From NCBI GenBank assembly GCA_963767005.1, contig CAVYCN010000008.1:113021-177020 (forward strand): DNA of 64,000 nucleotides, written 5' to 3'. Numbering within the stretch: position 1 is the stretch's first letter; each line of letters begins with the position of its first letter. The notes beneath the pieces were generated by a model. That model ran no database searches, had not been told where the DNA came from, and was given only the letters and a program-made list of their open reading frames with translations. Below are positions 17,176 through 41,928 of the stretch, piece by piece. The stretch is from an uncultured Actinomycetes bacterium. Lineage in GTDB: Bacteria; Actinomycetota; Thermoleophilia; UBA2241. The translations under genes and the position numbers were made by a program.

Positions 17176-17274
17176 GCGGCCGCCGCCGGCCATCCAGGGC
17201 ACGCCGGGACCCGGTCCCGGCGCAGGCGCGAGCGCGGCGTCGCGGGGCGCTCAAGTGATGGCGGGGACCCACCG

Positions 17275-18936
17275 ATGAACGGGGCAGGCGGGCAGCCCGG
17301 GACGGCGACGAGCGACCTGGTCAAACAGTCGTCGCCCACCGAAGCCATGGGTAGCCTTGCTCGAGACGGCCGCATCAGGGGCAGCTCGATGGAAGAGGCA
17401 GCAGAGCCGGTGAGCGACGGCATCGTCAAGGAGAACACGTACGCGGCTGCTCCCAACGGCGCGAACCTCGACGCCGGCCTTGCGCTCGGCGAGGTCGCGG
17501 TCGGCAGCCCGCGCGGGGTGGGGGGTCGGCGCGCGCTCGTCACGCTCGCCGGCGACTGCGTCGCACTGGCCCTCGCGTCGGCCCTCGCCTACGTGCTGCT
17601 GCCGCTCATGGCGCACATGCCGCTCGTCGAGCGCTCCCTCGGCGACTACGCCAGCCTCAGGCCGCCGCTCGCCGCCATCTTCTTCATGGTGCCCTGGACG
17701 ATCTTCGTGCTGTACGGTTACGGCCTGTACCGCAGCTCGGCGCGCAGCATCAACGGCTGGGTGTTCTCCGAGGGCCTGCGCGGTCTGACCGCGATCTCGG
17801 TGGCGGCCTGGAGCGCCCTCGTCCTCACCCTGGTGCTCGACGGCACGACCGACGCGCTCGGCTACATCGCCGTGCTCTGGGGCTGCGAGGTCGCCGCCGT
17901 GCCGCTCTGCCGGGCCGTGGCGCGGGCCGCGGTGTGGCGCTCGCCGCGCCTGTCGGAACGCACCCTGATCGTCGGCGCCGGCGCGGTCGGGCATCTGCTG
18001 GGCGAGAAGATCGGCAAGCACCCCGAGTACAACCTGCGCCTCGTCGGCTACCTCGACGACGGCGAGCCGTTCGGGCCGAGCAAGCTGCCCGTGCCGGTGA
18101 TCGGCCGGCTCGAGGACCTGAACGACGTGCTCGACAGCCAGCGCGTGACGCGCGTGATCATCGCGTTCTCACGGGCTCGCCACCAGCAGATCCTCGACGT
18201 GGTGCGTACCTGCGCCGACCGCGGCGTGCGGGTGAACATCGTGCCGCGGCTGTTCGAGATCCTGAGCTCGCAGACCGAGATGGACGACGTCGAGGGCATC
18301 CCCCTGCTCGACGTCGCCCACGTCGAGATGTCGCGCTTCAACATGGTGGTCAAGCGCGCCTTCGACCTCGTGGCCGGCGGCGCGCTGACCCTGCTGGTGC
18401 TACCGCTGATCGGCGTGCTCGCCGTGGCCATCAAGCTCGACTCGCGCGGCCCCGTGTTCTTCAGGCAGGAGCGCATGGGGCGCGGTGGCCACGTGTTCCG
18501 CATGATCAAGCTGCGCTCGATGCACGTGAACGCCGAGGAGCTGCGCCATGACCTCGCCGACCTGAACGAGTACTCGGGGCCGATGTTCAAGATGAAGAGC
18601 GATCCGCGGGTCACACGCGTGGGGCGTTTCATCCGCAAGTGGAGCCTCGACGAGGTGCCCCAGATCCTCAACGTGGTGCGTGGCGAGATGAGCCTGGTGG
18701 GCCCCCGACCGCTCTGGGTCGACGAGGCTGCCCGCTGCCGGGGCTGGACCAAGAAGCGTCTCGACATCACGCCCGGCATGACCGGCCTGTGGCAGGTGAC
18801 CGGCCGCAACGACGTGCCCTTCGACGAGATGGTCAAGCTCGACTACATGTACGTCACCGGCTGGACGCTGTCCTGGGACATCAAGATCCTGCTCGAGACC
18901 ATCCCCGCCGTGCTGGGCAAGCGCGGCGCCTACTGA
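17275..18936 (+). CDS. Priming polyprenyl-phosphate glycosylphosphotransferase (WcaJ/WbaP/CpsE-like); start uncertain (17275, 17347 or 17389)
   Basis: N-terminal TM segments and Rossmann-like GAGAVG domain. C-terminal KRAFD, KLRSM, DPRVTRVGRFIRKWSLDE, MSLVGPRP and PGMTGLWQV. Confidence 0.92.
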   Translation: MNGAGGQPGTATSDLVKQSSPTEAMGSLARDGRIRGSSMEEAAEPVSDGIVKENTYAAAPNGANLDAGLALGEVAVGSPRGVGGRRALVTLAGDCVALALASALAYVLLPLMAHMPLVERSLGDYASLRPPLAAIFFMVPWTIFVLYGYGLYRSSARSINGWVFSEGLRGLTAISVAAWSALVLTLVLDGTTDALGYIAVLWGCEVAAVPLCRAVARAAVWRSPRLSERTLIVGAGAVGHLLGEKIGKHPEYNLRLVGYLDDGEPFGPSKLPVPVIGRLEDLNDVLDSQRVTRVIIAFSRARHQQILDVVRTCADRGVRVNIVPRLFEILSSQTEMDDVEGIPLLDVAHVEMSRFNMVVKRAFDLVAGGALTLLVLPLIGVLAVAIKLDSRGPVFFRQERMGRGGHVFRMIKLRSMHVNAEELRHDLADLNEYSGPMFKMKSDPRVTRVGRFIRKWSLDEVPQILNVVRGEMSLVGPRPLWVDEAARCRGWTKKRLDITPGMTGLWQVTGRNDVPFDEMVKLDYMYVTGWTLSWDIKILLETIPAVLGKRGAY

Positions 18937-19067
18937 CGCGGAGAGACCCCCTTCCCCAGCTCCTCCGCCTCGTATAGGCTTGGCGTCGTCGGCGCGGCCG
19001 TCGACGACCCGGGCTCGTCCTTTTGCGGACGCGAAGCCGCGGGCCGGGCGGCCGGACGCGCGAGTGG

Positions 19068-19141
19068 GGCGGCATGGCCAAGTGGTAAGGCGGGGGTGCG
19101 CAACACCTCGATCCCAGGTTCGACTCCTGGTGCCGCCTCCA
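19068..19141 (+). tRNA. tRNA-Cys(GCA) with atypical anticodon loop
   Basis: Cloverleaf: acceptor GGCGGCA/TGCCGCC; D-arm GCC-AAGTGGTAA-GGC; anticodon stem GGGGT/ACCTC with loop GCGCAAC; T-arm CCAGG-TTCGACT-CCTGG; U73 discriminator and encoded CCA. Confidence 0.9.
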
Positions 19142-19329
19142 GTCGTCCCGACGGCATCGTCCGCCGGCCGTCGCCCGGTGCCGCACCCCCTCGCGACCGC
19201 GCTTGGCCACCCTCCCGGCGTCCTTTCGGCGTCGCTTCGGGCGCCGAGGGGTAAGCACGGGCACGGATCCGGCCGATAAGAGCCCGTGAGCGCCGGCGGG
19301 TGCGCGGGCGCAACGACAGAGGAGGAGCG

Positions 19330-20289
19330 GTGGCACAGGAGCGAGTACTCGTGACCGGCGGGGCCGGCTTCATCGGCTCGAACATCGTCGACGCCCTGCT
19401 GGCCGACGGCTCCTGGGCCGTACGCGTCCTCGACAGCTTCGCCACCGGTCGGCGCGGCAACCTGGCCCACTGCCTCGACGACATCGAGCTCGTCGAGGGC
19501 GACATCCGCGACCTCGAGACCGTCGAGGAGGCCGTCGACGGCGTACAGCTCATCCTGCACCAGGCCGCGCTGCCGTCGGTCAGCCGTTCCGTGAAGGCGC
19601 CGGTCACGACCAACGCGGTCAACGTCGAGGGTACCCTCAAGCTGCTCTCGGCCGCGCGGCGGGCGGGCGTGCGCAGGGTCGTGCTGGCCTCGTCGTCGTC
19701 GGTCTACGGCGACGGGCACGAGCTGCCCAAGACCGAGCAGATGCCGCCGCGGCCGATGTCGCCGTACGCCGTGACCAAGCTGGCCGCCGAGAGCTTCTGC
19801 CGGGTGTTCTCCGAGATCTACGGCCTCGAGACCCTGGCGTTGCGCTACTTCAACGTCTTCGGGCCACGCCAGGACCCCACGTCGCAGTACTCGGGCGTGA
19901 TCGCCCGCTTCGCCCTGTCGGCGCTGCACAACGTGCCCTACCGCGTGTACGGCGACGGTCTGCAGTCGCGCGACTTCTCCTACATCGACAACGTCGTGCA
20001 CGCCAACCTGCTCGCGCTGCGGGCGCCGCGTGTGAGCGGCGAGGTGGTCAACATCGCCTGCGGCGAGCGCATCACCCTGCTCGACATGGTCACCGTCTTG
20101 AACGAGCTGGTCGGGCGCGAGGTGCCGGTCGAGTTCGTCGACCCGCGGCCCGGCGAGGTACGCCACTCCCAGGCGGGCATCCAGCGGGCCGCCGAGCTGC
20201 TCGACTACCATCCGGTGGTCGACTTCCGCGCCGGTATGGCACGCACGTTCGCCTGGTACGAGGAGCAGGAGTCGGCGCCGGTCGTCTAG
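19330..20289 (+). CDS. Extended-SDR NDP-sugar 4-epimerase (WbpP/TviC-like)
   Basis: VLVTGGAGFIGS, ASSSSVYG, YAVTK (YxxxK) and LRYFNVFGPRQDP; GGAGGAG SD. Confidence 0.9.
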   Translation: MAQERVLVTGGAGFIGSNIVDALLADGSWAVRVLDSFATGRRGNLAHCLDDIELVEGDIRDLETVEEAVDGVQLILHQAALPSVSRSVKAPVTTNAVNVEGTLKLLSAARRAGVRRVVLASSSSVYGDGHELPKTEQMPPRPMSPYAVTKLAAESFCRVFSEIYGLETLALRYFNVFGPRQDPTSQYSGVIARFALSALHNVPYRVYGDGLQSRDFSYIDNVVHANLLALRAPRVSGEVVNIACGERITLLDMVTVLNELVGREVPVEFVDPRPGEVRHSQAGIQRAAELLDYHPVVDFRAGMARTFAWYEEQESAPVV

Positions 20290-20302
20290 CGGCCGGCGCG
20301 GG

Positions 20303-20350
20303 GTCGAGCGGGGCGGGGCGCCGCGTCAGCGGCGCCCCGCCCCGCTCGAC
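20303..20350. terminator. Perfect 22-bp-arm hairpin between convergent genes
   Basis: GTCGAGCGGGGCGGGGCGCCGC-GTCA-GCGGCGCCCCGCCCCGCTCGAC. Confidence 0.8.
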
Positions 20351-20374
20351 TGCCTTTGCGTCTCGGATGTGGTC

Positions 20375-21301: not shown

Positions 21302-21565
21302 TTCCACGGCTCCGTTTCGGTTGGCGGTTGCGGGGTGCGGTCCGGCCCATGCCGGCCGTCCCTCCATGCCGTGCCGCGCCTTTCCGATCGCGGCGTTCGG
21401 TGCTCGCCGAAGCGGGGGATGGAGACCCCGCCCCAGCCCGACTCGAGACGGCGACGAGCCGTCGCCGTCGGTCAGAGGGAAGCTGCCGTCCGGCCGAACC
21501 GCGAACGCGGCGCGACGGCCGCGAGATCCGCACGGATCACGCGGTCGGCCGGACGGGGGTGGGGT

Positions 21566-21658
21566 CTAACGCTGGATCGTCTTCAGGACGAGTGAGATCG
21601 GGCAGAAGGGGGAATAGCGGCTTTGCAAGTGGGCCGGGGCCAATCGTCTACGGTGCAT
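21566..21658 (-). CDS. Putative 30-aa small protein or leader peptide (not in the ORF track)
   Basis: GAAAGGAGG-N6-ATG, then MHRRRLAPAHLQSRYSPFCPISLVLKTIQR-TAG. Confidence 0.45.
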   Translation of the reverse strand: MHRRRLAPAHLQSRYSPFCPISLVLKTIQR

Positions 21659-21810
21659 GACCTGCCTCCTTTCAGAGGTCGGCAGACCTCTTTGGGGTGG
21701 GCGCCGTCATGGAGCGCGCCGTGTGCTTTTGGTCGGTCGTGGAGCGTTGCCTGGCAAGTAAACGTCCGGGACCTTACCGGCCCTTTTCGCGTGCGTCAAC
21801 CCGCGCCCAA

Positions 21811-21940: not shown

Positions 21941-22065
21941 AGCGCTGCTCCTCCCGAGCCGCGCAGGGCGGGCTGGGTGGACCGTCGCGGAAGCGGTGAG
22001 ATAGGGTGACGGCACGTGTCGTCAAGCGGGGGACAGACGGCAACGATCGCCGACAAGGGGGACAC

Positions 22066-23160
22066 ATGCCCGGGCCGCTCGTGAGCGTCGTCGTGCCCAC
22101 GTACAATCGTGCGGCGCTCGTCGTCGCGGCCGTCCGCTCGGCGCTCGCCCAGACCTGGACCAGGCTCGAGGTCGTCGTCGTCGACGACGGCTCGACCGAC
22201 GACACCGCCGCGGTCCTGGCGAGCCTCGCCGACGATCGGGTCCGCTGCATCCGGCAGGACAACGCGGGCGTGTCCGCGGCCCGCAACCGTGCCCTGGCCG
22301 AGGCCCGGGGCGATCTCGTCGCGTTCCTCGACAGCGACGACTCGTGGCTGCCCTGGAAGCTCGAGGCCGAGGTCGCCGTGCTGGCGCGGCACCCCGACGT
22401 CGGCCTCGTCTGGACCGACATGAGCGCGGTAGACGACGCCGGTCGCGTCGTCTACGAGCGCTACCTCACACGCATGTACACGGCCTACCGCTACTTCGGG
22501 CGCGAGCGCTTCGCCCAGAGCACCCGGCTCGACGAGTTGTGGTCGGAGTGCCCCGTCGAGCTCGCGGGCACGCGCTGCTCCGTCGGCGACGTCTATCCGT
22601 GGATCGTCATGGGCAACCTGCTGCACACCTCCACCGTGATGCTGCGGCGCGAGTGGCAGGAGCGGGTCGGCGGGTTCGGCGAGGACCTCCTGCCGGGGGC
22701 CGGCGAGGACTACGACTTCTACGTGCGGGTGACCCGGCTCGGCCCCGTCGCCTTCATCGACGCCGCCTCGACCCGCTATCGGGTAGGCGCGGCCGACCAG
22801 ATGACGGAGCCGGGTGGCTTGCTCGTGGCGGCCCGCAACAACCTGCTTACCGTCGAGAAAGCGCTCGCCGCCGACGGCGCCGCCGGCCTCCCGCCGGCGC
22901 TCGTGCGCGAACGCCTCGCGTTCTGTCACGGCTGGATCGGTGTCGAGGAGTCGGCGAGCGACCGCCGCGCCGCACGCGCTCACCTGGCGCGGGCCGTGCG
23001 CACGGCGCCGGCGCCCCGCTCGCGCGACTGGTGGCGCTTCCTGGCCTACGACGGCCTCTCGTATCTGCCGCCCGAGGCCCTCGTCGCCGCGCGGCGCGCG
23101 GCGCACGCGGCCAAGGCCGGCGCCGAGCGCGCGCGATCGGGGCGCGGGCGAGGCTCATGA
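22066..23160 (+). CDS. GT2 glycosyltransferase
   Basis: VSVVVPTYNR, VVDDGSTD, GVSAARN and FLDSDD motifs. Confidence 0.92.
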   Translation: MPGPLVSVVVPTYNRAALVVAAVRSALAQTWTRLEVVVVDDGSTDDTAAVLASLADDRVRCIRQDNAGVSAARNRALAEARGDLVAFLDSDDSWLPWKLEAEVAVLARHPDVGLVWTDMSAVDDAGRVVYERYLTRMYTAYRYFGRERFAQSTRLDELWSECPVELAGTRCSVGDVYPWIVMGNLLHTSTVMLRREWQERVGGFGEDLLPGAGEDYDFYVRVTRLGPVAFIDAASTRYRVGAADQMTEPGGLLVAARNNLLTVEKALAADGAAGLPPALVRERLAFCHGWIGVEESASDRRAARAHLARAVRTAPAPRSRDWWRFLAYDGLSYLPPEALVAARRAAHAAKAGAERARSGRGRGS

Positions 23161-23172
23161 TAGCCGGGCGCC

Positions 23173-24351
23173 GTGTCGAAAGAACCTGACATGGAGACCT
23201 TCGACACAGCCGGCGCCGCCGACGCGACGCACGCCCCGACGCCGTCCGCCCCGGCGCGGTCCGAGCCGCCCGCCGGGGTCGTGGCCTCCACCGCCGCGCA
23301 GCTCACCGCGTCGCAGCGCGAGGCCTGGCGCGACTTCGCGGCGGCGACTCCGCACGCGAGCTACGCGCAAGATCCCGACTGGGCCGACGTCGAGCGCGAC
23401 CCGGGCCACGGTCAGGCGCGCGAGCCGCGCTTCTTCTGGGCGGAGCGCGGCGGTCGCGTGTGCCTGACGGCGCTCGGTGTTCGGCGCCGCCTGCCCGTAC
23501 CCGGCCGCGTGTTCTGGGAGTTCGAGGGCGGTCCCGTCGTCCTTGAGCCCGCCGTGCTCGACGAGTGGCTGACCTGGCTGACCGCGACGCTGGGCCACGA
23601 GGCCGGGCGGCTGCGCGTCCAGCCAGCCTGGGCCCTCGACGAGGCCGGCGACCAGATGGAGAGCATCCTCGACGCCCACGGCTTCGTGCGTCGCCGCGGC
23701 CTCGGCATCTGGACCACCCTGATGGTCGGGCTCGAGCGGCCCGACGACGAGCTCCTCGCCTCGTTCCGGCGCCAGACCAGGCAGAAGATCAAGCAGTCCG
23801 GCGCGTTGGGCCTGCAGGTGTCGGCCGAGGACGACGAGCGCGGCCGCGCGGCTCTCGTCGCGCTCGACGCCGAGATGGCCGCCCGCACGCCGGTCCGCCC
23901 CATCGAGCAGGGCATCGTCGCGGCCATCAGCCGCCACTGGTTCAGGGACGGGGCCGGCGGCACGGTGCTCGTGGCGCGTCGCGACGGCGAGCCGCTCGCC
24001 GCCGCCCTGCTGATCGTCTCTCGTGCTACCGCCCACCTGCATACGCTGCCCTCGTCTCGCCGGAGCAATGACCTGCCGGCCACACACCTGCTGGTCTGGG
24101 AGGCGATGCGCTGGGCGCGCGATCACGGTTGCACCCTGTTCGACCTCGACGGCTACTGCGTGACCGCGCATCAGGGCGAGCCGCTCTGGGGCGTGAACCA
24201 GTTCAAGCGCGGCTTTGCGCCGAAGCTCGATATTGTGCGGACGGTGGCCGTTCACGAGCGGGTCTTCTCGCCCGCCCTCGTGAGCTCGGCCGCCTTGGTC
24301 AGGGAGCTGCAGGGCAGGTACCGGCGTTTCCGCGGCGCCGCGGAGTCATGA
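23173..24351 (+). CDS. FemAB/FemX-like tandem-GNAT transferase
   Basis: SYAQDPDWADV, GGPV, TLMVGLERPDDELLASFRRQTRQKIKQS, HLLVWEAMRWARDHGCTLFDLDG and GVNQFKRGF match the FemABX pattern. Confidence 0.8.
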   Translation: MSKEPDMETFDTAGAADATHAPTPSAPARSEPPAGVVASTAAQLTASQREAWRDFAAATPHASYAQDPDWADVERDPGHGQAREPRFFWAERGGRVCLTALGVRRRLPVPGRVFWEFEGGPVVLEPAVLDEWLTWLTATLGHEAGRLRVQPAWALDEAGDQMESILDAHGFVRRRGLGIWTTLMVGLERPDDELLASFRRQTRQKIKQSGALGLQVSAEDDERGRAALVALDAEMAARTPVRPIEQGIVAAISRHWFRDGAGGTVLVARRDGEPLAAALLIVSRATAHLHTLPSSRRSNDLPATHLLVWEAMRWARDHGCTLFDLDGYCVTAHQGEPLWGVNQFKRGFAPKLDIVRTVAVHERVFSPALVSSAALVRELQGRYRRFRGAAES

Positions 24352-25631
24352 GCTCGCCCCAGGCCGTCGTGGCACGCGCCGGCCCGGCGCTCGCCGGCCT
24401 GCCGCCGCTCCTCGTGCGCAAGGGGCGCGGTCTGCCGGCCGCGCTGCGTCACGAGCTGCGCGCGATCGAGGGACTGCGTTCCGACCGGCCGCGGGCTGCC
24501 TATATCGGCTTCGTGGGGTATGGCAACCTCGGCGACGAGGCGCTGCTCGAGGCCCACCGGCGGCTGTTCCCCGACGTCGACCTCGTCGTCTACCGCAAGA
24601 GCCGCGCCCTCGCCCTGCGGCACCGTGCCACCGGGCGGTCACCCTACGACTTCGGCATCCTGGGCGGCGGCACACTGATCGCGCAGCACCACAGCTGGCT
24701 CGAGTCGGTGCGACAGCTTCAGTCGCAGGGCGTGCCGATGATCTGCGTGGGCACGGGCGTCGCCGCGCCGGCCTTCTGGCGGCGCGGCGGGCTCGACCGC
24801 AGCTACCTGCTGCACGAGCCCGGCGAGCTCGCCGCCTGGCGTGAGGCGCTGGAACGGTTCGTCTACGTCGGCGTGCGCGGCCCCGAGTCGGCGCGTGAGC
24901 TCGCCGCCTGGGGGATCGCCGACGCCGACGTCGTGGGCGACGCCGTGCTATCCCTTGCGACGGCGCCGGCGCCCGTCGTCGGCCAAGCCCGCGAGCGGCT
25001 CGTGGGGGTCAACGTCGGGTGCACTCCGGGCGACCCGATGTGGGGCGACCCCGACACCTTCCTGGCGGAGATGACCCGCTTCGTGGCGCGGCTCTGCGAC
25101 GCCGGCCGGCGCGTGCGGCTGCTGCCCATCCGCGAGGGCGACGTCGCGAGCGCCGAGCTCGTGCGGGCCGGCGTGGGGAGCGCGCGCTGCGAGATCGTGC
25201 GCGCCTTCGACGGCTATGCCAGCTACGCCGCTCAGGCGCGCGACTGTGAGGTCTTCGTGGGGCAGAAGCTGCACGCCACGGTGATCGCCTGCCTGCAGCG
25301 GGTGCCGGCCCTCATGATCGAGTACCGGCCCAAGTGCCGCGACTTCATGGCGAGCCTCGGTCTCGAGGACCTGACGGTGCGCACCGACGCCTTCACGGCC
25401 GAGGTCGGCGTGACCATGCTCGACGACCTGCTCGGCCGGCGCGACCTCGTCGCCGCCCGTCTCGACGAGCACATCGCGCGGTACCGGCGCCGTCAGGTGG
25501 CCGCCGCGACCGTGCTCACCCGGCACCTGCTGACGGGGGGCGCCGCGGCCGCGGCGCCGGCCGGCCCCGCGGCCGCGGCGCCCGAGCCGGTGGCCGCCGG
25601 CGACGTCGGCCGCCAAGGCGCCGGCCGTTGA
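24348..25631 (+). CDS. Polysaccharide pyruvyl transferase (CsaB/WcaK-like)
   Basis: GYGNLGDEA, LGGGTLI, VGVRGPES, KLHA and YRPKC motifs. Confidence 0.85.
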   Translation: MSSPQAVVARAGPALAGLPPLLVRKGRGLPAALRHELRAIEGLRSDRPRAAYIGFVGYGNLGDEALLEAHRRLFPDVDLVVYRKSRALALRHRATGRSPYDFGILGGGTLIAQHHSWLESVRQLQSQGVPMICVGTGVAAPAFWRRGGLDRSYLLHEPGELAAWREALERFVYVGVRGPESARELAAWGIADADVVGDAVLSLATAPAPVVGQARERLVGVNVGCTPGDPMWGDPDTFLAEMTRFVARLCDAGRRVRLLPIREGDVASAELVRAGVGSARCEIVRAFDGYASYAAQARDCEVFVGQKLHATVIACLQRVPALMIEYRPKCRDFMASLGLEDLTVRTDAFTAEVGVTMLDDLLGRRDLVAARLDEHIARYRRRQVAAATVLTRHLLTGGAAAAAPAGPAAAAPEPVAAGDVGRQGAGR

Positions 25632-26626
25632 AGCTCGCCGTCACCATCGACACCGAGGCCGACGGCCAGTGGGACCACGGCGCCCCGCTCACCACCCGCA
25701 ACGTGGCCTTCTGGGAGCCGTTCCAGGAGCTCTGCGAGCGCCACGGCGCCGCCCCCACCTACGTGGTCACGACCGAGATCGCCGCCGACGAGCGGGCCCG
25801 TGAGCTGCTCACCGGCTGGGCGCGGCGCGGCGCCTGTGAGGTGGGCTCCCACCTGCACCCCTGGACGACGCCGCCGTTCGCCGACCGGCCGGGCCTGCGC
25901 TTCAACGACGCCGTGCACGCGTTCCCCTGTCAGCTACCCGACGAGCTGCTCCACGAGAAGCTCGTCACCCTGACCGAGCAGGTGACCGCCGCCTTCGGCG
26001 CACCGCCCACCTCGTATCGCGCCGGACGGTTCGGCTTCGACGCGCGCAGCGCCGCCGTGCTCGCCGCGACGGGCTACGTGGTCGATTCGTCGGTGTCGCC
26101 CCTCTGGTCGTGGCGCGCCCACCCCGGCCTCGAGGGCCGCGGCGGCCCCGACTTTCGCCGGCACCGGCCCTGGCCGTTCCTGATCGGCGATGGCGACTCG
26201 AGCCTGGTAGAGATCCCCGTGACCATCCTGCCGACCTACACCGCGCTGCGCCGCTCGCCGGCCCTGCTCGCCGCCTACCAGCTTCTGCCGGTGCGCGCTG
26301 TGCGCAAGCTGTTCCTGTCGCGCTGGCTGCGACCTCAGCCCATGTGGCTGCAGCCCGACCCGCGTCTCGGGGCCGACGACCTCGCGAGCCTCTGGCGCTG
26401 TGCCGAGCGGCTCGGGCTCGAGGCGCTCGTCATGATGTTCCACAGCAGCGAGCTCATGCCGGGCGGCAGCCCGTTCCGGCCCGACGTCGACGCGGTGCGC
26501 GAGCTCCTGACGTGCCTCGACCGCTTCTTCGGTTTCGTGCGGGCGAGCGGCGGCGAGTTCGCCATGCTCACCCCGCTCGCCGCGTGGCTGCGGTGTGAAC
26601 GGTCGCTCCCGCTGGGGCTGCCGTGA
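25628..26626 (+). CDS. Polysaccharide deacetylase (WalW-like, NodB fold)
   Basis: TTG start overlapping the upstream stop; VTIDTEAD, GSHLHPW, SYRAGRFG, VDSSV and MMFHSSE. Confidence 0.85.
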   Translation: MKLAVTIDTEADGQWDHGAPLTTRNVAFWEPFQELCERHGAAPTYVVTTEIAADERARELLTGWARRGACEVGSHLHPWTTPPFADRPGLRFNDAVHAFPCQLPDELLHEKLVTLTEQVTAAFGAPPTSYRAGRFGFDARSAAVLAATGYVVDSSVSPLWSWRAHPGLEGRGGPDFRRHRPWPFLIGDGDSSLVEIPVTILPTYTALRRSPALLAAYQLLPVRAVRKLFLSRWLRPQPMWLQPDPRLGADDLASLWRCAERLGLEALVMMFHSSELMPGGSPFRPDVDAVRELLTCLDRFFGFVRASGGEFAMLTPLAAWLRCERSLPLGLP

Positions 26627-27807
26627 GGCTGCTGCTGCTCGCCGACGTGCTCGACAACGGCGGTCAGGAGCGCCAGATGTCGCTCCTCGCCGCTAGCCTG
26701 CCGGCCTCCTGGGAGGTGCGTCTGTGGAGCATGGGCGGGGGGCCGTTCGAGGCCTATCTGCGCGAGCGCGGCGTGCCGGTGATGATCGCCCGGCGGCACT
26801 CGCGTTTCGACCCGCTCCCGGCGGTCGCGCTGCTGCCCGTCCTGCGCGAGTACCGGCCCGACGTCGTGCACGCCTGGAGCTGGATGGCGGGGCTCGCCGC
26901 GGCGCCGCTGTGCCGGGCGCTCGGCGTGCCGATCGTGAACGGCATGATCCGCAGCGGCGCGGTCGACCCCGACTTTCCCCGGCTCAAGCGCCTCGGCCTT
27001 ACCCTCGCCACGCTGGTGGTCGCCAACACGCGCGCCGGTCTGGCGGCGTGGGGGGTGAGCCCGGCCAAGGGCAGGGTCGTCTACAACGGCTTCGACGAGT
27101 CGCGCCTGGCGGCGCTCGAAGCGCCCGGCGGGGCCGGGCCGCGGCCCGGCCCCGCCGGGCGCTTCACCGTCGTCATGACCGGCCGCATGACCAGGGTGAA
27201 ACACTACGACGTCGTGATCGAGGCGGCGCGCCGGCTGCGCGAGGCGGCGGGCGGCTGGCGCTTCGTGCTGGTGGGCGACGGCCCCGACCGCGAGCGTCTG
27301 CTGGGCGAGGCGCGCGACCTGGTCGCGACCGGTGTCGTCGAGTTCCCCGAGCCCGGCACCGAGGTCCTCGGCCTGGTGCGCCGGGCCGACGTCGGCGTCC
27401 TCATGACCAATCCGCTGCACGCCAACGAAGGCTTCAGCAACTCGATCATGGAGTACATGGCGCTCGGTCTGCCGGTGGTGTGCGGCGACGGCGGCGGCAA
27501 CCCGGAGCTCGTGCGCGACGGCGTCACCGGCTTCGTCGTGCCGCAGGGCGACGTCGCCCGCCTCGTCGAGCGGCTGGTCTGGCTGCGCGAGCACGACGCC
27601 GAGCGCCACGCCATGGGCGCCGCCGGTCGCGACTACGTGCTCACCGAGCTCTCGGTCGACGCGATGGTCGACGGCATGCTCGAGGTCTACGACGAGGCGG
27701 CCTTCAGGGTCGGCCGTCTGCTCTGGCCAGCCGGGGCCGGGCGGCATCCGCAGGCTGGGGCGCGATCCTCGCGTGCGCCGTCGCCTGACGGCGACACCGT
27801 CGCCTGA
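26623..27807 (+). CDS. GT4 glycosyltransferase
   Basis: GGQERQ, VYNG and EGFSNSIMEYMALGLPVV motifs. Confidence 0.9.
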   Translation: MRLLLLADVLDNGGQERQMSLLAASLPASWEVRLWSMGGGPFEAYLRERGVPVMIARRHSRFDPLPAVALLPVLREYRPDVVHAWSWMAGLAAAPLCRALGVPIVNGMIRSGAVDPDFPRLKRLGLTLATLVVANTRAGLAAWGVSPAKGRVVYNGFDESRLAALEAPGGAGPRPGPAGRFTVVMTGRMTRVKHYDVVIEAARRLREAAGGWRFVLVGDGPDRERLLGEARDLVATGVVEFPEPGTEVLGLVRRADVGVLMTNPLHANEGFSNSIMEYMALGLPVVCGDGGGNPELVRDGVTGFVVPQGDVARLVERLVWLREHDAERHAMGAAGRDYVLTELSVDAMVDGMLEVYDEAAFRVGRLLWPAGAGRHPQAGARSSRAPSPDGDTVA

Positions 27808-27834: not shown

Positions 27835-29721
27835 TTACCAGGGCCGGCCCGCGGTGGCCGCCTCGGCCCAGGTCGCCAGCCCGAGGAGGGTCCACACGCG
27901 CGGACTCAGATCGCGCGCGCTGCGGCGCTGCAGGTCGAGCAGGGCGCGCACGCCGGCCGGCGCGAACAGGTCGAGCTGGTCGCCGGTCAGGCGCTCGTCG
28001 ACGAACTCGCGCAGCGGGCCGTCGAGCCAGCGCCGCAGGGGCGGGTCGAAGCCCTGCTTGGGGCGGTCGAACAGGCCGTCCGGCAGGTACGGCTGGCCGA
28101 TCGCCCGCAGGAGGACCTTCTGCTGCCCGTCGCGCAGCTTGTACGAGAGGGGCAGCGTGTTGACGTACTCGGCGAAGACGTGGTCGAGCAGCGGCACGCG
28201 CGCCTCGAGCGAGACGGCCATGCTGCTGCGGTCGACCTTGGCGAGGATGTCGTCGACGAGGTAGGTCTCCTGGTCGACGCGCTGGGCGTCGCTCACGCTG
28301 CCGTCGGTCGCGAAGTCGTCGCGCCAGCTCGCGTCGCCGCCGTCGCTGTGCAGGAAGGCGGCGAGGCGCGGGCTCAGGGCCTCCACGACCGGCCCTGCGG
28401 TGGGGGTGAGGCCGTAGCGCAGCGAGAAGTAGCGCAGCGGGGCCGGCTCGGCGAGGCGCCGCACGAAGCCACCGCCGCGGGCGCCCTCGGCCACCACGGC
28501 GCCCGCGACGACGGCGGCCCGGCGGCGTAGCGGGAGCGGCACGCGGTCGATCGGCCGGTACAGACCGAGGTCGGCGTACACGGTGTAGCCGGCGAAGAGC
28601 TCGTCGCCGCCGTCGCCCGACAGCGACACCGTCACCTGCCGGCGCGCCAGGCGGCTGACGAGGTACGTGGGGATCGCCGACACGTCGGCGAACGGCTCGT
28701 CGAAGCGGGCGAGCAACTCGGGCAGCAGGCGCGCCTCGCTCGCCCCCACGATCTCGGTGTGGTGGTCGACGCCCAGATGGCGGGCGACGCGCTCCGCGTG
28801 GGGCAGCTCGCTCGCCGGATCGTCCTCGAAGCCGATCGAGAACGTCTTGAGGTCGCGGGGCCCGACGGCGTGCGTGAGCGCCACGACCGTGCTGGAATCG
28901 ACGCCGCCCGACAGGAATGCGCCGAGCGGCACGTCGCTGCGCAGATGGAGCCGGATGCTCTCCTCGAGCAGCTCGGTGGCGCGCTCACGGGCCTCGTCGA
29001 ACGAGGGGGTCGCCGCGCGCTCGCCGACCCACGGGCGCCAGTACCGCACCGTCCGCGCGCGGCCGCCCGCCCGGCCGTCGCCGCCGAGGCGCCAGAGCTC
29101 GGCGGTGCCGGGTGGCATCTTGCGCACGCCGCGGTAGGCGGTGAGGGGGCAGGGCACGTAGCCGATGCGCAGGTAGGCGCGCAGCGCGGCGGCGTCCCAG
29201 TCGCGGTCGAGCCAGGGCAGGTGCAGCAGCGACTTGATCTCCGAGGCGAAGGCCATGCGCCCGGCCGCCTCGGCCACGAAGAGTGGCTTGATGCCGAACC
29301 GGTCGCGGGCCACTATGAGCTCCCCGCGGCGCGCGTCCCACACGGCGAAGGCGAACATGCCGCGGAAGCGGCGCACGCAGCCGATGCCGTCCTGCTCGTA
29401 CTGGTGCGCGATGACCTCGGTGTCGCAGCCGGTACGGAAGCGATGGCCCTGCGCGATGAGCTCCTCGCGCAGCTCGACGAAGTTGTAGATCTCGCCGTTC
29501 AGGATGGCCCAGACCGTGCCGTCCTCGTTGCCGATCGGCTGGTCGCCGGTCTCGAGGTCGATGATGCGCAGGCGCCGCGCGCCGAGCCCGACGCGGGGCT
29601 CGATGTGAAAGCCGTCGGCGTCGGGGCCGCGGTGGGCGAGCTCGCCGGTCATGGCGCGGACGAGCGCCTCGTCGACGGCTTGGTCGATCCCGTGGTGAAG
29701 GAGTCCGGCTATGCCGCACAC
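27835..29721 (-). CDS. asnB: Asparagine-synthase-type glutamine amidotransferase
   Basis: GTG-CGIAG (Ntn Cys1), HRGPD, NGEIYN, RDRFGIKPL, LSGGVDSS, SGDGGDELFAGY and RPKQGF. Confidence 0.92.
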   Translation of the reverse strand: MCGIAGLLHHGIDQAVDEALVRAMTGELAHRGPDADGFHIEPRVGLGARRLRIIDLETGDQPIGNEDGTVWAILNGEIYNFVELREELIAQGHRFRTGCDTEVIAHQYEQDGIGCVRRFRGMFAFAVWDARRGELIVARDRFGIKPLFVAEAAGRMAFASEIKSLLHLPWLDRDWDAAALRAYLRIGYVPCPLTAYRGVRKMPPGTAELWRLGGDGRAGGRARTVRYWRPWVGERAATPSFDEARERATELLEESIRLHLRSDVPLGAFLSGGVDSSTVVALTHAVGPRDLKTFSIGFEDDPASELPHAERVARHLGVDHHTEIVGASEARLLPELLARFDEPFADVSAIPTYLVSRLARRQVTVSLSGDGGDELFAGYTVYADLGLYRPIDRVPLPLRRRAAVVAGAVVAEGARGGGFVRRLAEPAPLRYFSLRYGLTPTAGPVVEALSPRLAAFLHSDGGDASWRDDFATDGSVSDAQRVDQETYLVDDILAKVDRSSMAVSLEARVPLLDHVFAEYVNTLPLSYKLRDGQQKVLLRAIGQPYLPDGLFDRPKQGFDPPLRRWLDGPLREFVDERLTGDQLDLFAPAGVRALLDLQRRSARDLSPRVWTLLGLATWAEAATAGRPW

Positions 29722-29785
29722 GTCGATGTCCTCCGGCTGGCCACGGCTTCGTCGCCGCCGGCCGTCGCCCTCGGGCGCGGCGCGC

Positions 29786-31096
29786 TCACGGCGCGGCCTC
29801 GCGGCCGCAGACTGCGGCGAACAGGCCGGCCAGGGGCTCAGCGTACAGCGCGTAATGGAACCGGCGCTCGGCAAGCTCGCGGCCGCGCCGCCCGATCAGG
29901 GCGGCGCGAGCCGGGTCGTCGAGCAGCTCGACCACGGAGCGGCCGAAGGCGACCGGCTCACCGGCCGGGCGCACCAGGGCGTCCAGGCCGTCGGTGAAGA
30001 AGCGCGGGATCTCGCCGACGTCGCTCGTGACGACGGGCCGGGCAGCCGCCAGATACTCGCCGATCTTGGTCGGGAAGCGCGCCTGCGAACGCTGGTCGTA
30101 GAAGAGCGGGATGAGCAGCGCGTGGGCGCGCGCGTAGAGGCCGAGCAGCTCCTCGCGCGACAGGTAGCCGACGAGGTCGACGCGATCGCCGAGGCCGGCT
30201 TCGCGCACCGCGGCGCGCAGCCAGTCGCTCTTGGGGTCGCCGGGCTCGGCGCCGGTGACCGCGAGACGGCACTCGGGGTGCGTGCGCCACACCTCGGCCA
30301 TGGCGGCGAAGATGAAACGGATGGTCGGCTTGTAGTCGGGCGAGCCGGCGAACACGACGAGCGGATCGCCGGTCGGGTAGGGCGCCGGCTGCCGCTCGTC
30401 GACGTCGACCAGGATGGGCACCTCGACGACTCGCAGCCGGCGCCGGCGGCCGTGCGCCTGGCGCGCCGCCCAGCCGCGCAGCTCGGCGGAGATCGCGATC
30501 ACCCCGGCCATGCCGTCGACCGGCGACCAGAGCCGCGCCAGCAGGCTCTTCTGACGGGCGTAGGCCCAGGGGGTCTCGTCGATCTCGCGCACGACCGGCA
30601 CCCCGAGGCGGTGTAGCAGGGCGAGGAAGAAGGCGAGGCGGACCGCCGGTCGCGGCGTCCACAGCCACAGGCAGACGGCGTCGAGGCGCCCCTCGCGGCG
30701 CAGCCGCACGAGGCGCGCGGCGCCGTGGGCCCAGCCCCAGGTGGCGATCAGGCGACGGACGAGGAACGAGTCGTGGCGCACGGTCGTGCCGCAGGTGTAC
30801 TCGAAGGGCACCCCCTGGTGCTCGCCGCGTACGACCGTGTTCTCGACGTGCGTCGGGTGATCGGCGGCCTGCAGCGTGATGACGCGGGTGTTGACGCCGC
30901 CCTCGCGTAGCGCCCGGGCGACGAGGCGCGCGCGGCTGGTCGCCGCCATGCCGTGGGGGAAGGGCAGCCAGTCGCCGAGCACGACGACCTCGAGCGGGCC
31001 GGTCGCCGCGCCGCCTGGCGCGGCGCCGGCTCCGGGTGCGGCCGCCTTTGCCCGCGTCGCTTCGACCTGCTCTTGTGCGCTGTCGGTCAGACCCAT
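29786..31096 (-). CDS. GT4 glycosyltransferase
   Basis: RFPTKIGEYLAAARPVVTSDVGE C-terminal GT4 motif; GGAG SD before ATG 31096. Confidence 0.85.
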   Translation of the reverse strand: MGLTDSAQEQVEATRAKAAAPGAGAAPGGAATGPLEVVVLGDWLPFPHGMAATSRARLVARALREGGVNTRVITLQAADHPTHVENTVVRGEHQGVPFEYTCGTTVRHDSFLVRRLIATWGWAHGAARLVRLRREGRLDAVCLWLWTPRPAVRLAFFLALLHRLGVPVVREIDETPWAYARQKSLLARLWSPVDGMAGVIAISAELRGWAARQAHGRRRRLRVVEVPILVDVDERQPAPYPTGDPLVVFAGSPDYKPTIRFIFAAMAEVWRTHPECRLAVTGAEPGDPKSDWLRAAVREAGLGDRVDLVGYLSREELLGLYARAHALLIPLFYDQRSQARFPTKIGEYLAAARPVVTSDVGEIPRFFTDGLDALVRPAGEPVAFGRSVVELLDDPARAALIGRRGRELAERRFHYALYAEPLAGLFAAVCGREAAP

Positions 31097-32881: not shown

Positions 32882-33748
32882 GTGGAGAGCGCGACAGTCG
32901 AGCAGACGGTCGAACAGATCGCCAGGACCAAGCGGGTCATCAGGCCGCCCAAAGGGCGTGCGGCCCTGCACCTCCGTGAGCTGTGGGAGTATCGCGAGCT
33001 GCTCTACTTCCTGACGTGGCGCGACATCAAGGTGCGCTACAAGCAGGCGGTGCTGGGCGTGGCCTGGGCGGTGCTCAACCCGCTGATCACGGTCGTCGTG
33101 TTCAGCGTCGTCTTCCAGAAGATCCTGCACGTGCAGGTGCCGAAAGGCCTGGATGTGCCCTACGTGCTCTTCAGCTACGCCGCCCTGCTACCCTGGAACC
33201 TCTTCTCGGGCGCTCTCGGCCGGGTCGGCATGAGCCTCGTCGGGAACTCCAATCTGCTCACCAAGATCTACTTCCCGCGTCTCGTCATACCGATCTCGGC
33301 GATCCTCGGCGGCGTCGTCGACTTCGTCATCGCGCTCATCGTCTACTTCGTGCTTATGGCCGCCTACGGCGTGCCGCCGCACTGGCAGATCGTGCTGCTG
33401 CCGGCCTTTACGCTGCTCGCCATGCTGGCCTCGCTCGCCTTGGGCTTGTGGTTCGCCGCCCTGAACGTGCTGTACCGCGACGTCCAGTACGTCATCCCGT
33501 TCCTCGTGCAGCTCTGGATGTTCCTGTCGCCCGTCGCCTACCCGATTCAGATCCACACCAGGTGGAAGGCCATCGTGTACGGTCTCAACCCGATGGTCGG
33601 CGTCATCGCGGGTTTTCGCTGGTCGCTCCTCGGCGAGGCGCCGCCCGGTGGACTGCTGTTCGTGTCGAGCGCCGTCATGGTGGTGCTGCTCTTGACCGGC
33701 CTCGCCTACTTCAAGCGCATGGAGCGCACGTTCGCCGACCTGATCTAG
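32882..33748 (+). CDS. wzm: Polysaccharide ABC exporter permease
   Basis: ELWEYRELLYFLTWRDIKVRYKQAVLG, KIYFPR, YRDVQY, NPM and FADLI; GGAGG SD. Confidence 0.93.
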   Translation: MESATVEQTVEQIARTKRVIRPPKGRAALHLRELWEYRELLYFLTWRDIKVRYKQAVLGVAWAVLNPLITVVVFSVVFQKILHVQVPKGLDVPYVLFSYAALLPWNLFSGALGRVGMSLVGNSNLLTKIYFPRLVIPISAILGGVVDFVIALIVYFVLMAAYGVPPHWQIVLLPAFTLLAMLASLALGLWFAALNVLYRDVQYVIPFLVQLWMFLSPVAYPIQIHTRWKAIVYGLNPMVGVIAGFRWSLLGEAPPGGLLFVSSAVMVVLLLTGLAYFKRMERTFADLI

Positions 33749-33768
33749 GGTCGAGCGAGCGCAAAGGC

Positions 33769-35040
33769 ATGGGCATGGACGACATCAGCATCAGGGTCGA
33801 TGGGCTCGGCAAGATGTACCACATCGGCGGGGCGCTGCAGCGCCACACCACGCTGCGCGATGCCATCGTGGCGGCCGCCTCCAGACCGATCGAGCGCATC
33901 CGGCACCCCGGCTCCGTCACCAACCGCAGCGAGGAGCTCTGGGCGCTACGCGGCCTTTCGCTCGAGGTGCGCGAGGGCGAGGTGCTCGGCGTGGTCGGCG
34001 GCAACGGCGCCGGCAAGAGCACGTTCCTCAAGCTGCTGTCGCGCATCACCGAGCCGACCGAGGGCGAGATCTCGCTCACCGGTCGCGTCGGCAGCCTGCT
34101 CGAGGTCGGCACGGGCTTTCACCCCGAGCTCACCGGCCGCGAGAACATCTACCTGAACGGCGCCATCCTGGGCATGACCCGGGTCGAGATCAACCAGCGC
34201 TTCGACGACATCGTCGAGTTCTCCGAGATCGGGCGGTTCCTCGACACGCCGGTCAAGCGCTACTCGAGCGGCATGTACGTGCGCCTGGCCTTCGCCGTGG
34301 CGGCCCACCTCGAGCCCGAGATCCTGCTCATCGACGAGGTCCTATCCGTCGGCGACGCGGCCTTCCAGCGCAAGTGCCTGGGCCGCATGGAGAACGTCGC
34401 CGAGTCGGGTCGCACTGTGCTGCTTGTGAGCCACAACATGCAGACCATCCGCAGCCTGTGCACGCGGGTCGTGCAGTTCGAGGCCGGCCGCATCGTCAAA
34501 GAAGGGGAGCCCTCGCAGGTGGTCGACTCGTACCTCAAGCTGCTCGGCGGCAGCGACGGCGAGGCCCTGTGGTCGGGCGACGACCGGCCCGGCGACGACG
34601 ATGTGCGGCTCTCCGCCCTGCGCGTGCTCGACGCGGACGGCCGCCGCACGCCGTTCGTGATGAGCAGCGAGCCGTTCGTCGTGCAGATGGACGTCGACAT
34701 CGAGCGCCTCGTGCCCAACCTGACGATCGGCTTTGACCTCGCCCTGGCCGACGGCACGCTCGTGTTCCGCACCTATCAGACCGACGACGATCCCACGCTG
34801 TGGCCTGAGCTGCGCGTCGGGCGCAACAGGCTCGAGTGCGTGGTGAGCGCCCGCCTGTTGAACGACGGCCGCTACACGGTGTTCCCGCGCATCAGCATCG
34901 ATCGCTCGCGCTGGATCGTCGACCGCGGCGCCGTGTCGTTCGACTGCCAGCGCGACCCCGGCAGGTCGCCGCACGCCCTGGCCCAGAAGCCGGGCGCCCT
35001 GGCGCCGCTGCTGCCCTGGCGGAGCGCCGACCCGTCGTGA
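33769..35040 (+). CDS. wzt: Polysaccharide ABC exporter ATPase with C-terminal Wzt-C domain
   Basis: GGNGAGKST, GFHPELTGRENI, YSSGM, DEVLSVGD and VSH, plus a ~150-aa C-terminal domain. Confidence 0.93.
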   Translation: MGMDDISIRVDGLGKMYHIGGALQRHTTLRDAIVAAASRPIERIRHPGSVTNRSEELWALRGLSLEVREGEVLGVVGGNGAGKSTFLKLLSRITEPTEGEISLTGRVGSLLEVGTGFHPELTGRENIYLNGAILGMTRVEINQRFDDIVEFSEIGRFLDTPVKRYSSGMYVRLAFAVAAHLEPEILLIDEVLSVGDAAFQRKCLGRMENVAESGRTVLLVSHNMQTIRSLCTRVVQFEAGRIVKEGEPSQVVDSYLKLLGGSDGEALWSGDDRPGDDDVRLSALRVLDADGRRTPFVMSSEPFVVQMDVDIERLVPNLTIGFDLALADGTLVFRTYQTDDDPTLWPELRVGRNRLECVVSARLLNDGRYTVFPRISIDRSRWIVDRGAVSFDCQRDPGRSPHALAQKPGALAPLLPWRSADPS

Positions 35041-36353
35041 GCGGAGCGCCGCCTCCCGTCGGCGAGCGACGCCCGGCCCTGCTGTACTCGCCGAACCTGC
35101 AGGGCCACCGGATCACCTACTGCCGTGTGCTCGCCGACGTGCTCACCGAGCTCGGCTTTCGTGTCGTGGTCGCCGCCCGCCTGCGCGGCCCTGCCGTGGC
35201 CGGCGACCCGCTGCTGCTCGACCTCGCCGGGCGTCGCGGGGTGACCGTGCACGACATCGGCGACGCCGACGCGACCGCGACCCTCGACACGCTGGCGGCG
35301 ACCATCCGCCGCGCCGGCGCTGCGGTCACGCTGCTCACCGAGGCCGACACGCTGCTGCCGGCCCTGGCCGAGCGCCGGCGCCGTGCGGCACCGGCGCTCG
35401 GCGGCCGCGTGGTGGGCCTGTTCATCCGCAGCACCAACTACGAGTACCGGCCACGCGTCTCGGCGCTGCGGCGGGCGCGCACGCGCCTCGCCGAGGCCCG
35501 CGACCGGCGCGTCGGCGAGGCGGGTTTTCACGAAGGCCTCGTGCCGCGCCGGATCCCGCTCGACGCCGCGCTCGTGCTCGACGAGCGCTTCGCCCTGGCC
35601 CATGCTCGCAGCCACCAGTGGATGCCCGACATCTTCCGCGAGCTCGCCGAGCCGTCACCGGCCGGTGCAGCCGAGACCCGCGACTGGGCGCCCCGCCTGC
35701 GCGGGTTTCTGGACGCGGACCGGAGGCGCCCGCTCGTCGTCTACACGGGACCGAGCGATCGGCGCCGGGGCTACGACACGCTGCTGCGCCTGTGCCTGGC
35801 CGAGCACGGCCGGTTCCTGCACTGCGGCGAGCGCGACGCCGAGCTCGAGCGCGACGGCGCCGACGTGCGCGCGGCGCGCGAGACGCTCGCCGCGCGCGGC
35901 GACCTGCTCGAGACCGGGGCGCCCTACCTGAGCGCCGCCACCGCCGACCTCTTCCTCGACGCGGCGCGCTGCGTCGCGCTGCCCTACCGCGGCCACGACG
36001 GCTCGAGCGGCTCCATGCTGCAGGCGGTCGCCGCTGGCCGGCCGGTGCTCGTGCCCGACCGCGGCCTGTCGGCCTGGCGCGTGCGCTCGTTTGGCCTGGG
36101 CGTCGTGTATCGCGACGGCGATGACGCCGACCTGGCGCGGCGCTTCCGCGAGCTCTGCCGGGTGGGGCCCGAGCCGTATCACGCGGCCACCGGGCGCTAC
36201 ACGGCGCTGTTCAGCCGCGACCAGGTGAGGGCCGCGATCGCGCGCGCCGTCGCCGTGCGCGGCGAGGGCGCGCGCCTGCCCCAGCAGGTGCTGGGTATCG
36301 GAGCGCCGGGCTCCGCCGGCAGCTCGGCCACGACCGAGGCGGTGGCGCGGTGA
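35037..36353 (+). CDS. Divergent GT-B glycosyltransferase-like protein
   Basis: N-terminal GH motif, RRGYDTL and LPY..HDGSSGSMLQAVAAGRPVLVP; GTGA overlap with wzt. Confidence 0.7.
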   Translation: MSGAPPPVGERRPALLYSPNLQGHRITYCRVLADVLTELGFRVVVAARLRGPAVAGDPLLLDLAGRRGVTVHDIGDADATATLDTLAATIRRAGAAVTLLTEADTLLPALAERRRRAAPALGGRVVGLFIRSTNYEYRPRVSALRRARTRLAEARDRRVGEAGFHEGLVPRRIPLDAALVLDERFALAHARSHQWMPDIFRELAEPSPAGAAETRDWAPRLRGFLDADRRRPLVVYTGPSDRRRGYDTLLRLCLAEHGRFLHCGERDAELERDGADVRAARETLAARGDLLETGAPYLSAATADLFLDAARCVALPYRGHDGSSGSMLQAVAAGRPVLVPDRGLSAWRVRSFGLGVVYRDGDDADLARRFRELCRVGPEPYHAATGRYTALFSRDQVRAAIARAVAVRGEGARLPQQVLGIGAPGSAGSSATTEAVAR

Positions 36354-41673: not shown

Positions 41674-41928
41674 CACCGGGTAGAAGAGCGTCTTGCGGCG
41701 CGCCGGTGGCCCAGGGGCGGTGGCGAGCCGCTCGTGCAGGTGCCGGTCTCGGCGGCCGCCGGCCGGCGGCCGTGGCCAGGCAGGACTCCGCGCCGCCGGA
41801 GCAGAAGTGGAAGGCTGGTGCGGGCCCCTCAACAGGCGCAGGCGGCGTGCCGATAACACGACAGGCCGGACGGCTTGCGGCGGTGGGTCGCCGCCGACCG
41901 GCCGACAGACGACCACCCGGGTGATGCG

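Follow-up and report, generated by a model that had tools for sequence, protein, structure and literature searches.

A second tRNA-Cys without U33 in an actinobacterial polysaccharide locus, a possible cysteine donor for a FemX-fold enzyme

The polysaccharide locus in the 64,000-nucleotide stretch of DNA analyzed here (the window) contains a tRNA-Cys gene that lacks U33. The explanation placed first, which is tentative when taken as a whole, is that this variant is a conserved second tRNA-Cys that acts as a charged, ribosome-avoiding donor of cysteine and serves the FemX-fold enzyme of the same locus. The parts of this reading differ in strength: detuning of the tRNA for the ribosome is probable, a role as cysteine donor is slightly favored, and the choice of this particular Fem-like enzyme as the user is tentative. 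The features on which the discussion is based are the following.

17275..18936, plus strand: priming polyprenyl glycosylphosphotransferase (Bac_transf; TIGR03025 above cut-off)
18975..18980, plus strand: possible -10 box TAGGCT (TANNNT form), 93 nt upstream of the tRNA; weak
19068..19141, plus strand: variant tRNA-Cys(GCA) with G32, C33, A37 and C38 (ARAGORN, Rfam, fold, alignment)
19300..20289, plus strand: NAD-dependent sugar epimerase
22006..23160, plus strand: glycosyltransferase family 2
23173..24351, plus strand: Fem-like tandem-GNAT protein with the FemX fold, candidate tRNA user (profile, model, alignment)
24129..25631, plus strand: polysaccharide pyruvyl transferase, probably starting only downstream of 24351
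25628..26626, plus strand: polysaccharide-deacetylase-like protein (CE4/NodB fold), assigned by fold
26623..27807, plus strand: glycosyltransferase family 4
27835..29874, minus strand: asparagine-synthase-type amidotransferase
32882..35040, plus strand: Wzm/Wzt ABC exporter of the glycan locus
36350..37774, plus strand: Wzy/O-antigen-ligase-like membrane protein (Atlas 0.99; no Pfam match)
41875..43629, plus strand: Wzz/Wzc chain-length and tyrosine-kinase protein

Regarding the tRNA gene, ARAGORN reports an intact 74-nt tRNA-Cys(GCA) at 19068-19141 (+) with a score of 113.8, and the sequence reaches 51.2 bits against Rfam RF00005, for which the gathering score is 29; it was missing from the Rfam gathering-threshold listing when the whole window was run. 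Its anticodon loop is G32-C33-GCA-A37-C38 and departs from the Y32-U33-GCA-A37-A38 loop of canonical elongator tRNA-Cys, which reads CT-GCA-AA in 42/42 canonical sequences compared. The MFE and centroid folds are both predicted to be a cloverleaf in which G32-C38 closes a 6-bp anticodon stem with a 5-nt loop; ARAGORN and the predicted fold thus agree with the initial annotation on the missing U33 and the longer stem, with the small correction that pair 28-42 is G.U in this genome and A-U in relatives. The GCA anticodon and the U73 discriminator, the CysRS determinants according to section 10 of PMC9976931, are present together with the 7-bp acceptor stem and an encoded CCA end, and pair 51-63 is A-U; GCA, U73, CCA and A51-U63 are as first annotated. 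Pairs 49-65 and 50-64 are C49-G65 and C50-G64, and the variant keeps G18G19, a TTC T-loop and all stems. The described setting is also correct: the tRNA is co-oriented with the priming transferase and the epimerase that flank it, and the Acetyltransf_6/FemAB gene lies at 4.0 kb.

A TANNNT hexamer occurs 54-100 nt upstream of the tRNA in each of six variant copies, which is a weak signal, and a scan for sigma-70 promoters and terminators around the tRNA found no full promoter and nothing else. A 198-nt contig from a public run, which may stem from the source sample, matches window 18946-19143 with 0 differences; a 257-nt RNA-library contig spanning the tRNA shows 3 differences, corresponds to the copy of a relative, and is no evidence of transcription. 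An ordinary-looking second tRNA gene at 63933-64000 is cut by the end of the window and of the contig.

As for the source genome (G000; 3.44 Mb in 19 contigs, 100% complete), a whole-genome tRNA scan with ARAGORN found the canonical tRNA-Cys whose presence the initial annotation had proposed as support for specialization; it stands beside a tRNA-Gly on contig C3 and is 81% identical to the variant. The labels of its closest protein and tRNA matches put the lineage in Thermoleophilia. The genome has a single CysRS gene (C3:224-226 kb), and neither a second CysRS nor a free anticodon-binding domain was found in it. On contig C6, ARAGORN called one more tRNA-Cys (score 102), which was set aside as noise because its stems are broken. 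The alternative of a lineage-specific decoding variant did not survive, as 59/59 pattern-positive genomes of the family have a CT-GCA-AA copy; likewise, the variant as sole tRNA-Cys or lineage-wide decoder was rejected, non-U33 genes occurring in only 4/401 genomes of the class (2/401 in Chloroflexota and 2/251 in the order of G143, each count including the centre genome). The unpublished genomes G129 and G1136 were counted in the class tallies, and no single claim depends on them.

Other tRNA genes of this genome deserve mention. Three fragments, each a copy of the final 39-44 nt of the canonical tRNA-Cys, are found at C3:10861, 47963 and 85194, spaced by about 37-41 kb, and are likely a tandem run of islands integrated at the canonical gene. 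The same contig carries a tRNA-Pyl(CUA) at C3:242986-243058 (-) and, at C3:236183-236905 (+), a gene for the C-terminal part of pyrrolysyl-tRNA synthetase that scores above the TIGR02367 cut-off; with the tRNA-Sec on C4, this is an actinobacterial-lineage genome with both extra amino acids.

Five copies with the GC-GCA-AC loop are spread over three genomes of the genus (one in G000, two each in G005 and G011), and the loop is also present on one metagenomic contig, L223; G004 has a related copy with the loop TT-GCA-AG, and G100 has a copy with CG-GCA-AA. Across the 8 distinct variant sequences, 98.8% of cells are paired and 8/21 pairs show two-sided changes, a level matched in 0/500 shuffles, a figure that is not a probability because the sequences are related. 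Compared with the canonical copy, pairs 7-66, 49-65 and 51-63 are each changed on both sides. These comparisons support selection on the variant tRNA, with compensatory changes in its stems; together with the shared loop, they make it neither an assembly error nor a decaying pseudogene. The assembly error that had been kept as an alternative is rejected also by the identical contig from the public run. The initial annotation had further named, as an objection to specialization, the same loop in relatives lacking the glycan locus, and this holds in part: two copies (L032 and L034) do lie outside glycan loci, but their genomes also hold a glycan-locus copy.

These two same-loop genes, L034:10001-10074 and L032:1508-1581, have similar flanks; the neighbors of the L034 copy are a D5 primase, a methylase, AbiEii and restriction genes, which suggests that it is carried on mobile DNA. 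A rearrangement was also seen on comparing L031 with window 16402-27807: the block formed by ymdB, the priming transferase and the epimerase is inverted relative to the Fem block in G005 and in G003, and at the gap the tRNA is kept in G005 and absent in G003.

Concerning the second component of the proposal, the profile of the Fem-like protein, built on an alignment that includes 7 distant rows, matched FemX structures with E 1.7e-43 and 4e-33; its model has a pLDDT of 92, and the best folds were FemX (TM 0.72) and then Sbb17/Sba18. The tandem-GNAT FemX fold extends across the whole protein and the active-site lysine is present, as in members of FemABX: the lysine of the FKxxF motif (about 24205-24207) is invariant in 52/52 rows and aligns with Lys305 of FemX, an active-site residue whose role is discussed in PMC12945691, and the basic helix is present. 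The Pfam FemAB model gives 33.4 bits over a short stretch and passes its cut-off of 24, while TIGR03019, the PEP-CTERM FemAB subfamily, gives 28 bits against a cut-off of 260, which is not reached. The gene is the only match to the Fem profile in G000; close orthologues occur in just 13/89 genomes of the family, in glycan loci, so that it is not a core cell-wall enzyme. In 10 of these 13 loci, a CE4-type deacetylase is found no more than about 3 kb away from the Fem gene; a PDB sequence search with the deacetylase of the window gave a best hit of only E 0.1, and its assignment rests on the fold. Such a deacetylase could expose the amine for acylation by a Fem-type enzyme, and deacetylation followed by N-aminoacylation would be a coherent route, for which Orf11 offers a precedent with an amino-sugar acceptor (PMC12945691).

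As for the behavior expected of the tRNA on the ribosome, the T-stem ddG for EF-Tu calculated with Table 2 of PMC3239215 is +0.9 kcal/mol for the variant and -0.2 kcal/mol for the canonical copy, hence an EF-Tu site predicted to be weaker by 1.1 kcal/mol. The anticodon loop of elongator tRNAs depends strongly on U33, and a Watson-Crick 32-38 pair demands an altered loop shape; however, C33 and G33 exceptions exist among elongator or initiator tRNAs, and such tRNAs can decode (PMC5041475). For these reasons, poor decoding by the variant is likely but not certain.

The initial annotation had proposed to check whether C33 co-occurs with the Fem-like gene in relatives. Read from the tRNA, all five of the 89 family genomes with a second, altered tRNA-Cys hold a Fem-like glycan gene, which is a close orthologue in four and, in G100, a distant Fem-like gene about 8 kb from the tRNA. 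Read from the enzyme, no variant was found by pattern in 9/13 family genomes with a close orthologue (81-100% complete, some contigs short). At the 10 other Fem loci of the family there was no tRNA-Cys, no tRNA of any kind and, by nhmmer, no degenerate remnant; the variant occurred at just 1/80 metagenomic Fem-like loci (many contigs short), and the distant metagenomic Fem loci had only ordinary tRNAs.

Beyond the genus, 49 variant loci were selected from 80 with long flanks, leaving out the own genus and thinning near-duplicates by eye, and were compared with 37 canonical loci from the same genomes and with a held-out set of 34 loci in 27 genomes. A Fem-like gene was within 8 kb in 5/49 variant loci (one of the five being the G100 stretch), 1/34 held-out loci and 0/37 canonical loci. 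On per-genome counts, 3 variant loci near a Fem-like gene were seen for 0.2 expected (Poisson p about 0.001); the direct comparison of 6/83 variant with 0/37 canonical loci is not significant (Fisher p = 0.10), and the Fem profile matched nothing in 24/50 variant genomes. At the held-out locus L398, a priming transferase, a Fem-like gene, a family 4 glycosyltransferase, the variant tRNA and a homologue of the window's deacetylase (E 1e-59) form one co-oriented run, and the trio of tRNA, Fem-like gene and deacetylase is present in an acidobacterial operon too. Fem-like genes close to variants share only 15-20% identity with the protein of the window, so they are not a single clade specific for cysteine, and the variants may be linked to glycan loci as such. 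Since there are genomes with the orthologue and no variant, and variant loci with no Fem-like gene, the Fem-like enzyme can do without the tRNA, and the variant class without the enzyme.

This class is wide. The search pattern asked for a tRNA-Cys with a base other than U at position 33, a GGCG start and a TTC loop, so that variants with a TGC/TGT T-loop could not be found; it matched at least 119 loci in 36 of the 64 parts of the GTDB collection (about 220 estimated for the whole) plus 16 viral loci, and 22 of the 119 were dropped, 11 being not tRNAs and 11 given another anticodon by ARAGORN. The 99 distinct non-U33 sequences, that of the window included, comprise kin and are not independent counts; they come from Firmicutes, Acidobacteria, Verrucomicrobia, Chloroflexota, Bacteroidota, Actinomycetota and other phyla, with C at position 33 in 77, A in 12 and G in 10. 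All seven acceptor pairs form in 97/99 (pairs 1-4 are fixed by the pattern). A Watson-Crick 32:38 pair is possible in 51/99, the T-stem is bulged in 23/99 and the D-loop GG is lost in 16/99, against 0/42 canonical sequences in each case. In 40 pairs from the same genome, 22 variants had a weaker EF-Tu site than the canonical copy and 8 a broken one; the site was of equal strength in 5 and stronger in 2, and 3 pairs could not be scored. The nearest relative of 15/40 variants is the canonical gene of their own genome, which points to several origins, and a canonical copy was found in 65/78 variant genomes (42/50 and 23/28). A Chloroflexota sample of 400 genomes yielded 1 new variant, with no Fem-like gene within 8 kb, and BLAST clustering of 73 loci in search of one neighbor shared by the class found no family in more than 9 loci. 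Standard tRNA callers report these genes as ordinary tRNA-Cys.

Two groups of variants stand apart. The Negativicutes-type variants (L068, L070, L071, L081, L104, L106, L114, L134 and others) have a bulged T-stem and often no D-loop GG; these are the most degraded ribosome-facing features of the class, with complete acceptor stems, and no partner enzyme was seen. The related viral contigs L041-L055 carry a CC-GCA-AA tRNA-Cys that does not encode CCA.

Regarding the other genomic settings, variants lie in polyketide clusters at L074, L080, L101, L102 and L370, and all four genomes with such PKS variants have a DUF2156 domain within an ORF of 2,200-3,500 residues; DUF2156 was sought in G164, which has a variant, with no match. 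The order ACP-DUF2156-Beta_elim_lyase, that of leinamycin LnmJ (PMC3870968), was confirmed in five such proteins, the one from G163 lying outside the scan, and DUF2156 has been named as an aminoacyl-tRNA transferase family (PMC9437257). In the 251 genomes of one order, the variant pattern matched only G143 and G356, and so did the DUF-SH query; in G356 the DUF2156-SH module is on the same contig as tandem variant tRNAs, at 77 kb. In that domain the clusters of G143 and G356 are 79% alike, and the two may represent a single event. At L370 (G144:C66), L101 and L385, trans-AT PKS clusters with DUF2156-SH modules, 2-4 variant tRNA-Cys genes are interleaved with acyl-carrier, ketosynthase and acyltransferase genes. 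Two odd tandem tRNA-like genes with 8-nt loops and no ARAGORN assignment (L384:13980-14133 (-) and L389:12569-12721 (-)) sit just upstream of the same Fulvivirga PKS cluster.

About 10 variants are inside cysteine-synthase, sulfate-ABC or Rrf2 operons of Opitutales and Acidobacteria; loci with this type of setting are L060, L063, L083, L084, L126, L064, L107, L069, L085, L109 and L371. It was found at 6/49 variant and 1/37 canonical loci, a partly circular comparison, as the queries came from variant loci, and the donor idea does not explain it. Most remaining variant loci, held-out ones included, have unrelated neighbors.

The mechanism proposed for the window would start from the single CysRS charging the variant through GCA and U73. 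C33, the G32-C38 pair and the weak C49-G65 and A51-U63 pairs would lower both decoding and capture by EF-Tu, and this poor use by EF-Tu and ribosome would leave over a free pool of Cys-tRNA; the deacetylase would then free an amine, and the Fem-like enzyme would move cysteine onto the deacetylated amino sugar of a surface polysaccharide. Most relatives with the enzyme are without the variant, so the enzyme is probably also able to use ordinary tRNA-Cys. The dedicated cysteine tRNA of the initial annotation is partly supported, by the canonical copy, the signs of selection, the weaker predicted EF-Tu site, the FemX fold and the glycan operons in other phyla that pair a Fem-like gene with a non-U33 tRNA-Cys; its dedication to this enzyme is weakened by the 9/13 orthologue genomes without a variant, the mobile-element copy (L034) and the many class members, most of them, that lie by other genes.

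Some of these opposing data would suit a detuned, charged tRNA with no enzyme partner that buffers or senses cysteine, through storage, titration of CysRS or an RNase P processing site in operons, its position in a glycan locus being incidental. The variants in cysteine and sulfate operons, where no tRNA-using enzyme was seen, the unrelated neighbors of most held-out loci and the copies on mobile DNA speak for it; the repeated placement by Fem-like genes and in DUF2156-SH clusters does not, and the interleaving of as many as five copies in a single PKS region fits a demand for substrate better than a sensor, so that this reading is judged unlikely. Equally improbable is a back-up tRNA that still decodes Cys codons, though less well, and that serves, for example, to escape an anticodon nuclease or to work without sulfur-containing modifications. 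Phage tRNAs evade nucleases through loop changes, tRNA-Cys is cut by some toxins, and MiaA requires A36-A37-A38. Similar C33 genes are present on viral contigs, the window copy has its D-loop GG, T-loop and all stems intact, no canonical copy was found by pattern in 8/50 and 5/28 variant genomes (incomplete ones), and the elongator or initiator tRNAs with C33 and G33 are themselves a point in favor (PMC5041475). However, a back-up decoder is not expected to lose EF-Tu binding, and the EF-Tu site is weaker or the T-stem broken in 30/40 pairs, with the D-loop GG lost in 16/99, which counts against it.

The cysteine could also be donated to another enzyme, either the asparagine-synthase-like proteins of the locus or the product of an unlinked gene, with the Fem-like protein using a different amino acid. 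The orthologue usually occurs without the variant, two amidotransferase-like genes are present in the locus, and G004 keeps its related tRNA away from its Fem locus; against this, searches of the genome with the Fem profile and PF09924 found no aminoacyl-tRNA-transferase fold other than that of the Fem-like gene, and the chances of this option are rated as slim. Finally, an assembly error, pseudogene or integration-site remnant is largely refuted and very improbable: the canonical tRNA-Cys is indeed an integration target, with its three 3'-end copies on C3, but the variant is a full-length gene with an encoded CCA, its loop is common to three genomes and a metagenomic contig, the public-run contig is identical, three stems carry compensatory changes, and no 3'-end duplicate of the variant itself was found in the searched genomes.

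Among known systems, the closest are the non-proteinogenic tRNA-Gly species (NP1-3) of staphylococci, used by FmhB/FemAB; these tRNAs combine an A51-U63 pair and a deficit of about 1.1 kcal/mol with a 5-nt loop on a 6-bp anticodon stem (PMC7826273). The variant is similarly an extra isoacceptor beside a normal one, with the same synthetase and a Fem-fold enzyme in the genome, and it shares A51-U63, a predicted EF-Tu binding weaker by about 1.1 kcal/mol and the 6-bp stem with its 5-nt loop. It differs in the amino acid (cysteine instead of glycine), in the loss of U33, in the acceptor, which would be a sugar amine and not lipid II, and in keeping the TTC T-loop (TGC/TGT in NP1-3) and the D-loop GG; in addition, its gene is inside a polysaccharide operon, and its class spans many phyla with several apparent origins. 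If the proposal holds, the variant would work like the staphylococcal tRNAs; the different amino acid and the retained TTC loop place it outside their lineage.

The Fem-like protein resembles Weissella FemX and the streptothricin-type Orf11, Sba18 and Sbb17 in its full-length tandem-GNAT fold, active-site lysine and basic helix, and the last three are a precedent for aminoacylating an amino sugar from aminoacyl-tRNA; it is about 20% identical to these enzymes, for which the consulted portion of PMC12945691 mentions no dedicated tRNA gene. The selC* tRNA-Cys and allo-tRNAs (PMC7609411, PMC5389517) are also extra bacterial tRNA-Cys with GCA and U73. In those tRNAs the acceptor branch is 8/4 and the variable arm is long, and they come with a SelB*/CysRS* of their own, whereas the variant has a 7/5 branch, a variable loop of 4 nt and a changed anticodon loop; a selC* identity was rejected on its branch and variable loop (PMC7609411). 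Leinamycin-type DUF-SH modules, composed of DUF2156 and a PLP lyase, put cysteine sulfur into the product (PMC8479088, PMC3870968), and other members of the class lie in such PKS clusters; the module is outside this window, and its chemistry gives an S-adduct and not an amide. In its accessible text, PMC8479088 (2021) leaves the role of the DUF open, proposes free thiocysteine and mentions tRNA nowhere (0 occurrences). A literature search found no report of non-U33 tRNA-Cys paralogues or of a cysteine class, which subscription papers or supplements could hold; the available parts of PMC9976931, PMC11122139, PMC8007984 and PMC11231383 do not describe a non-U33 tRNA-Cys class.

A wider and more doubtful extension is that repeated duplication of tRNA-Cys with loss of U33, in many phyla, gave a dedicated cysteine shuttle for tandem-GNAT enzymes, namely the Fem-like transferases, which would place thiol-bearing cysteine on surface glycans, and the DUF2156 of leinamycin-type DUF-SH modules, whose substrate would then be Cys-tRNA or its persulfide.

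In conclusion, staphylococci are known to have dedicated non-ribosomal tRNAs for glycine, and none was found in the literature for cysteine. The class can be tested, given the cultured, non-pathogenic carriers among the matches (Fulvivirga, Sporomusa, Paenibacillus). If the proposal is true, a tRNA-Cys without U33 would be a one-base signature of pathways that draw on Cys-tRNA, it would allow the substrate of the DUF domain in DUF-SH polyketide modules to be tested directly, and it would predict surface glycans that are cysteinylated, redox-active or cross-linkable.
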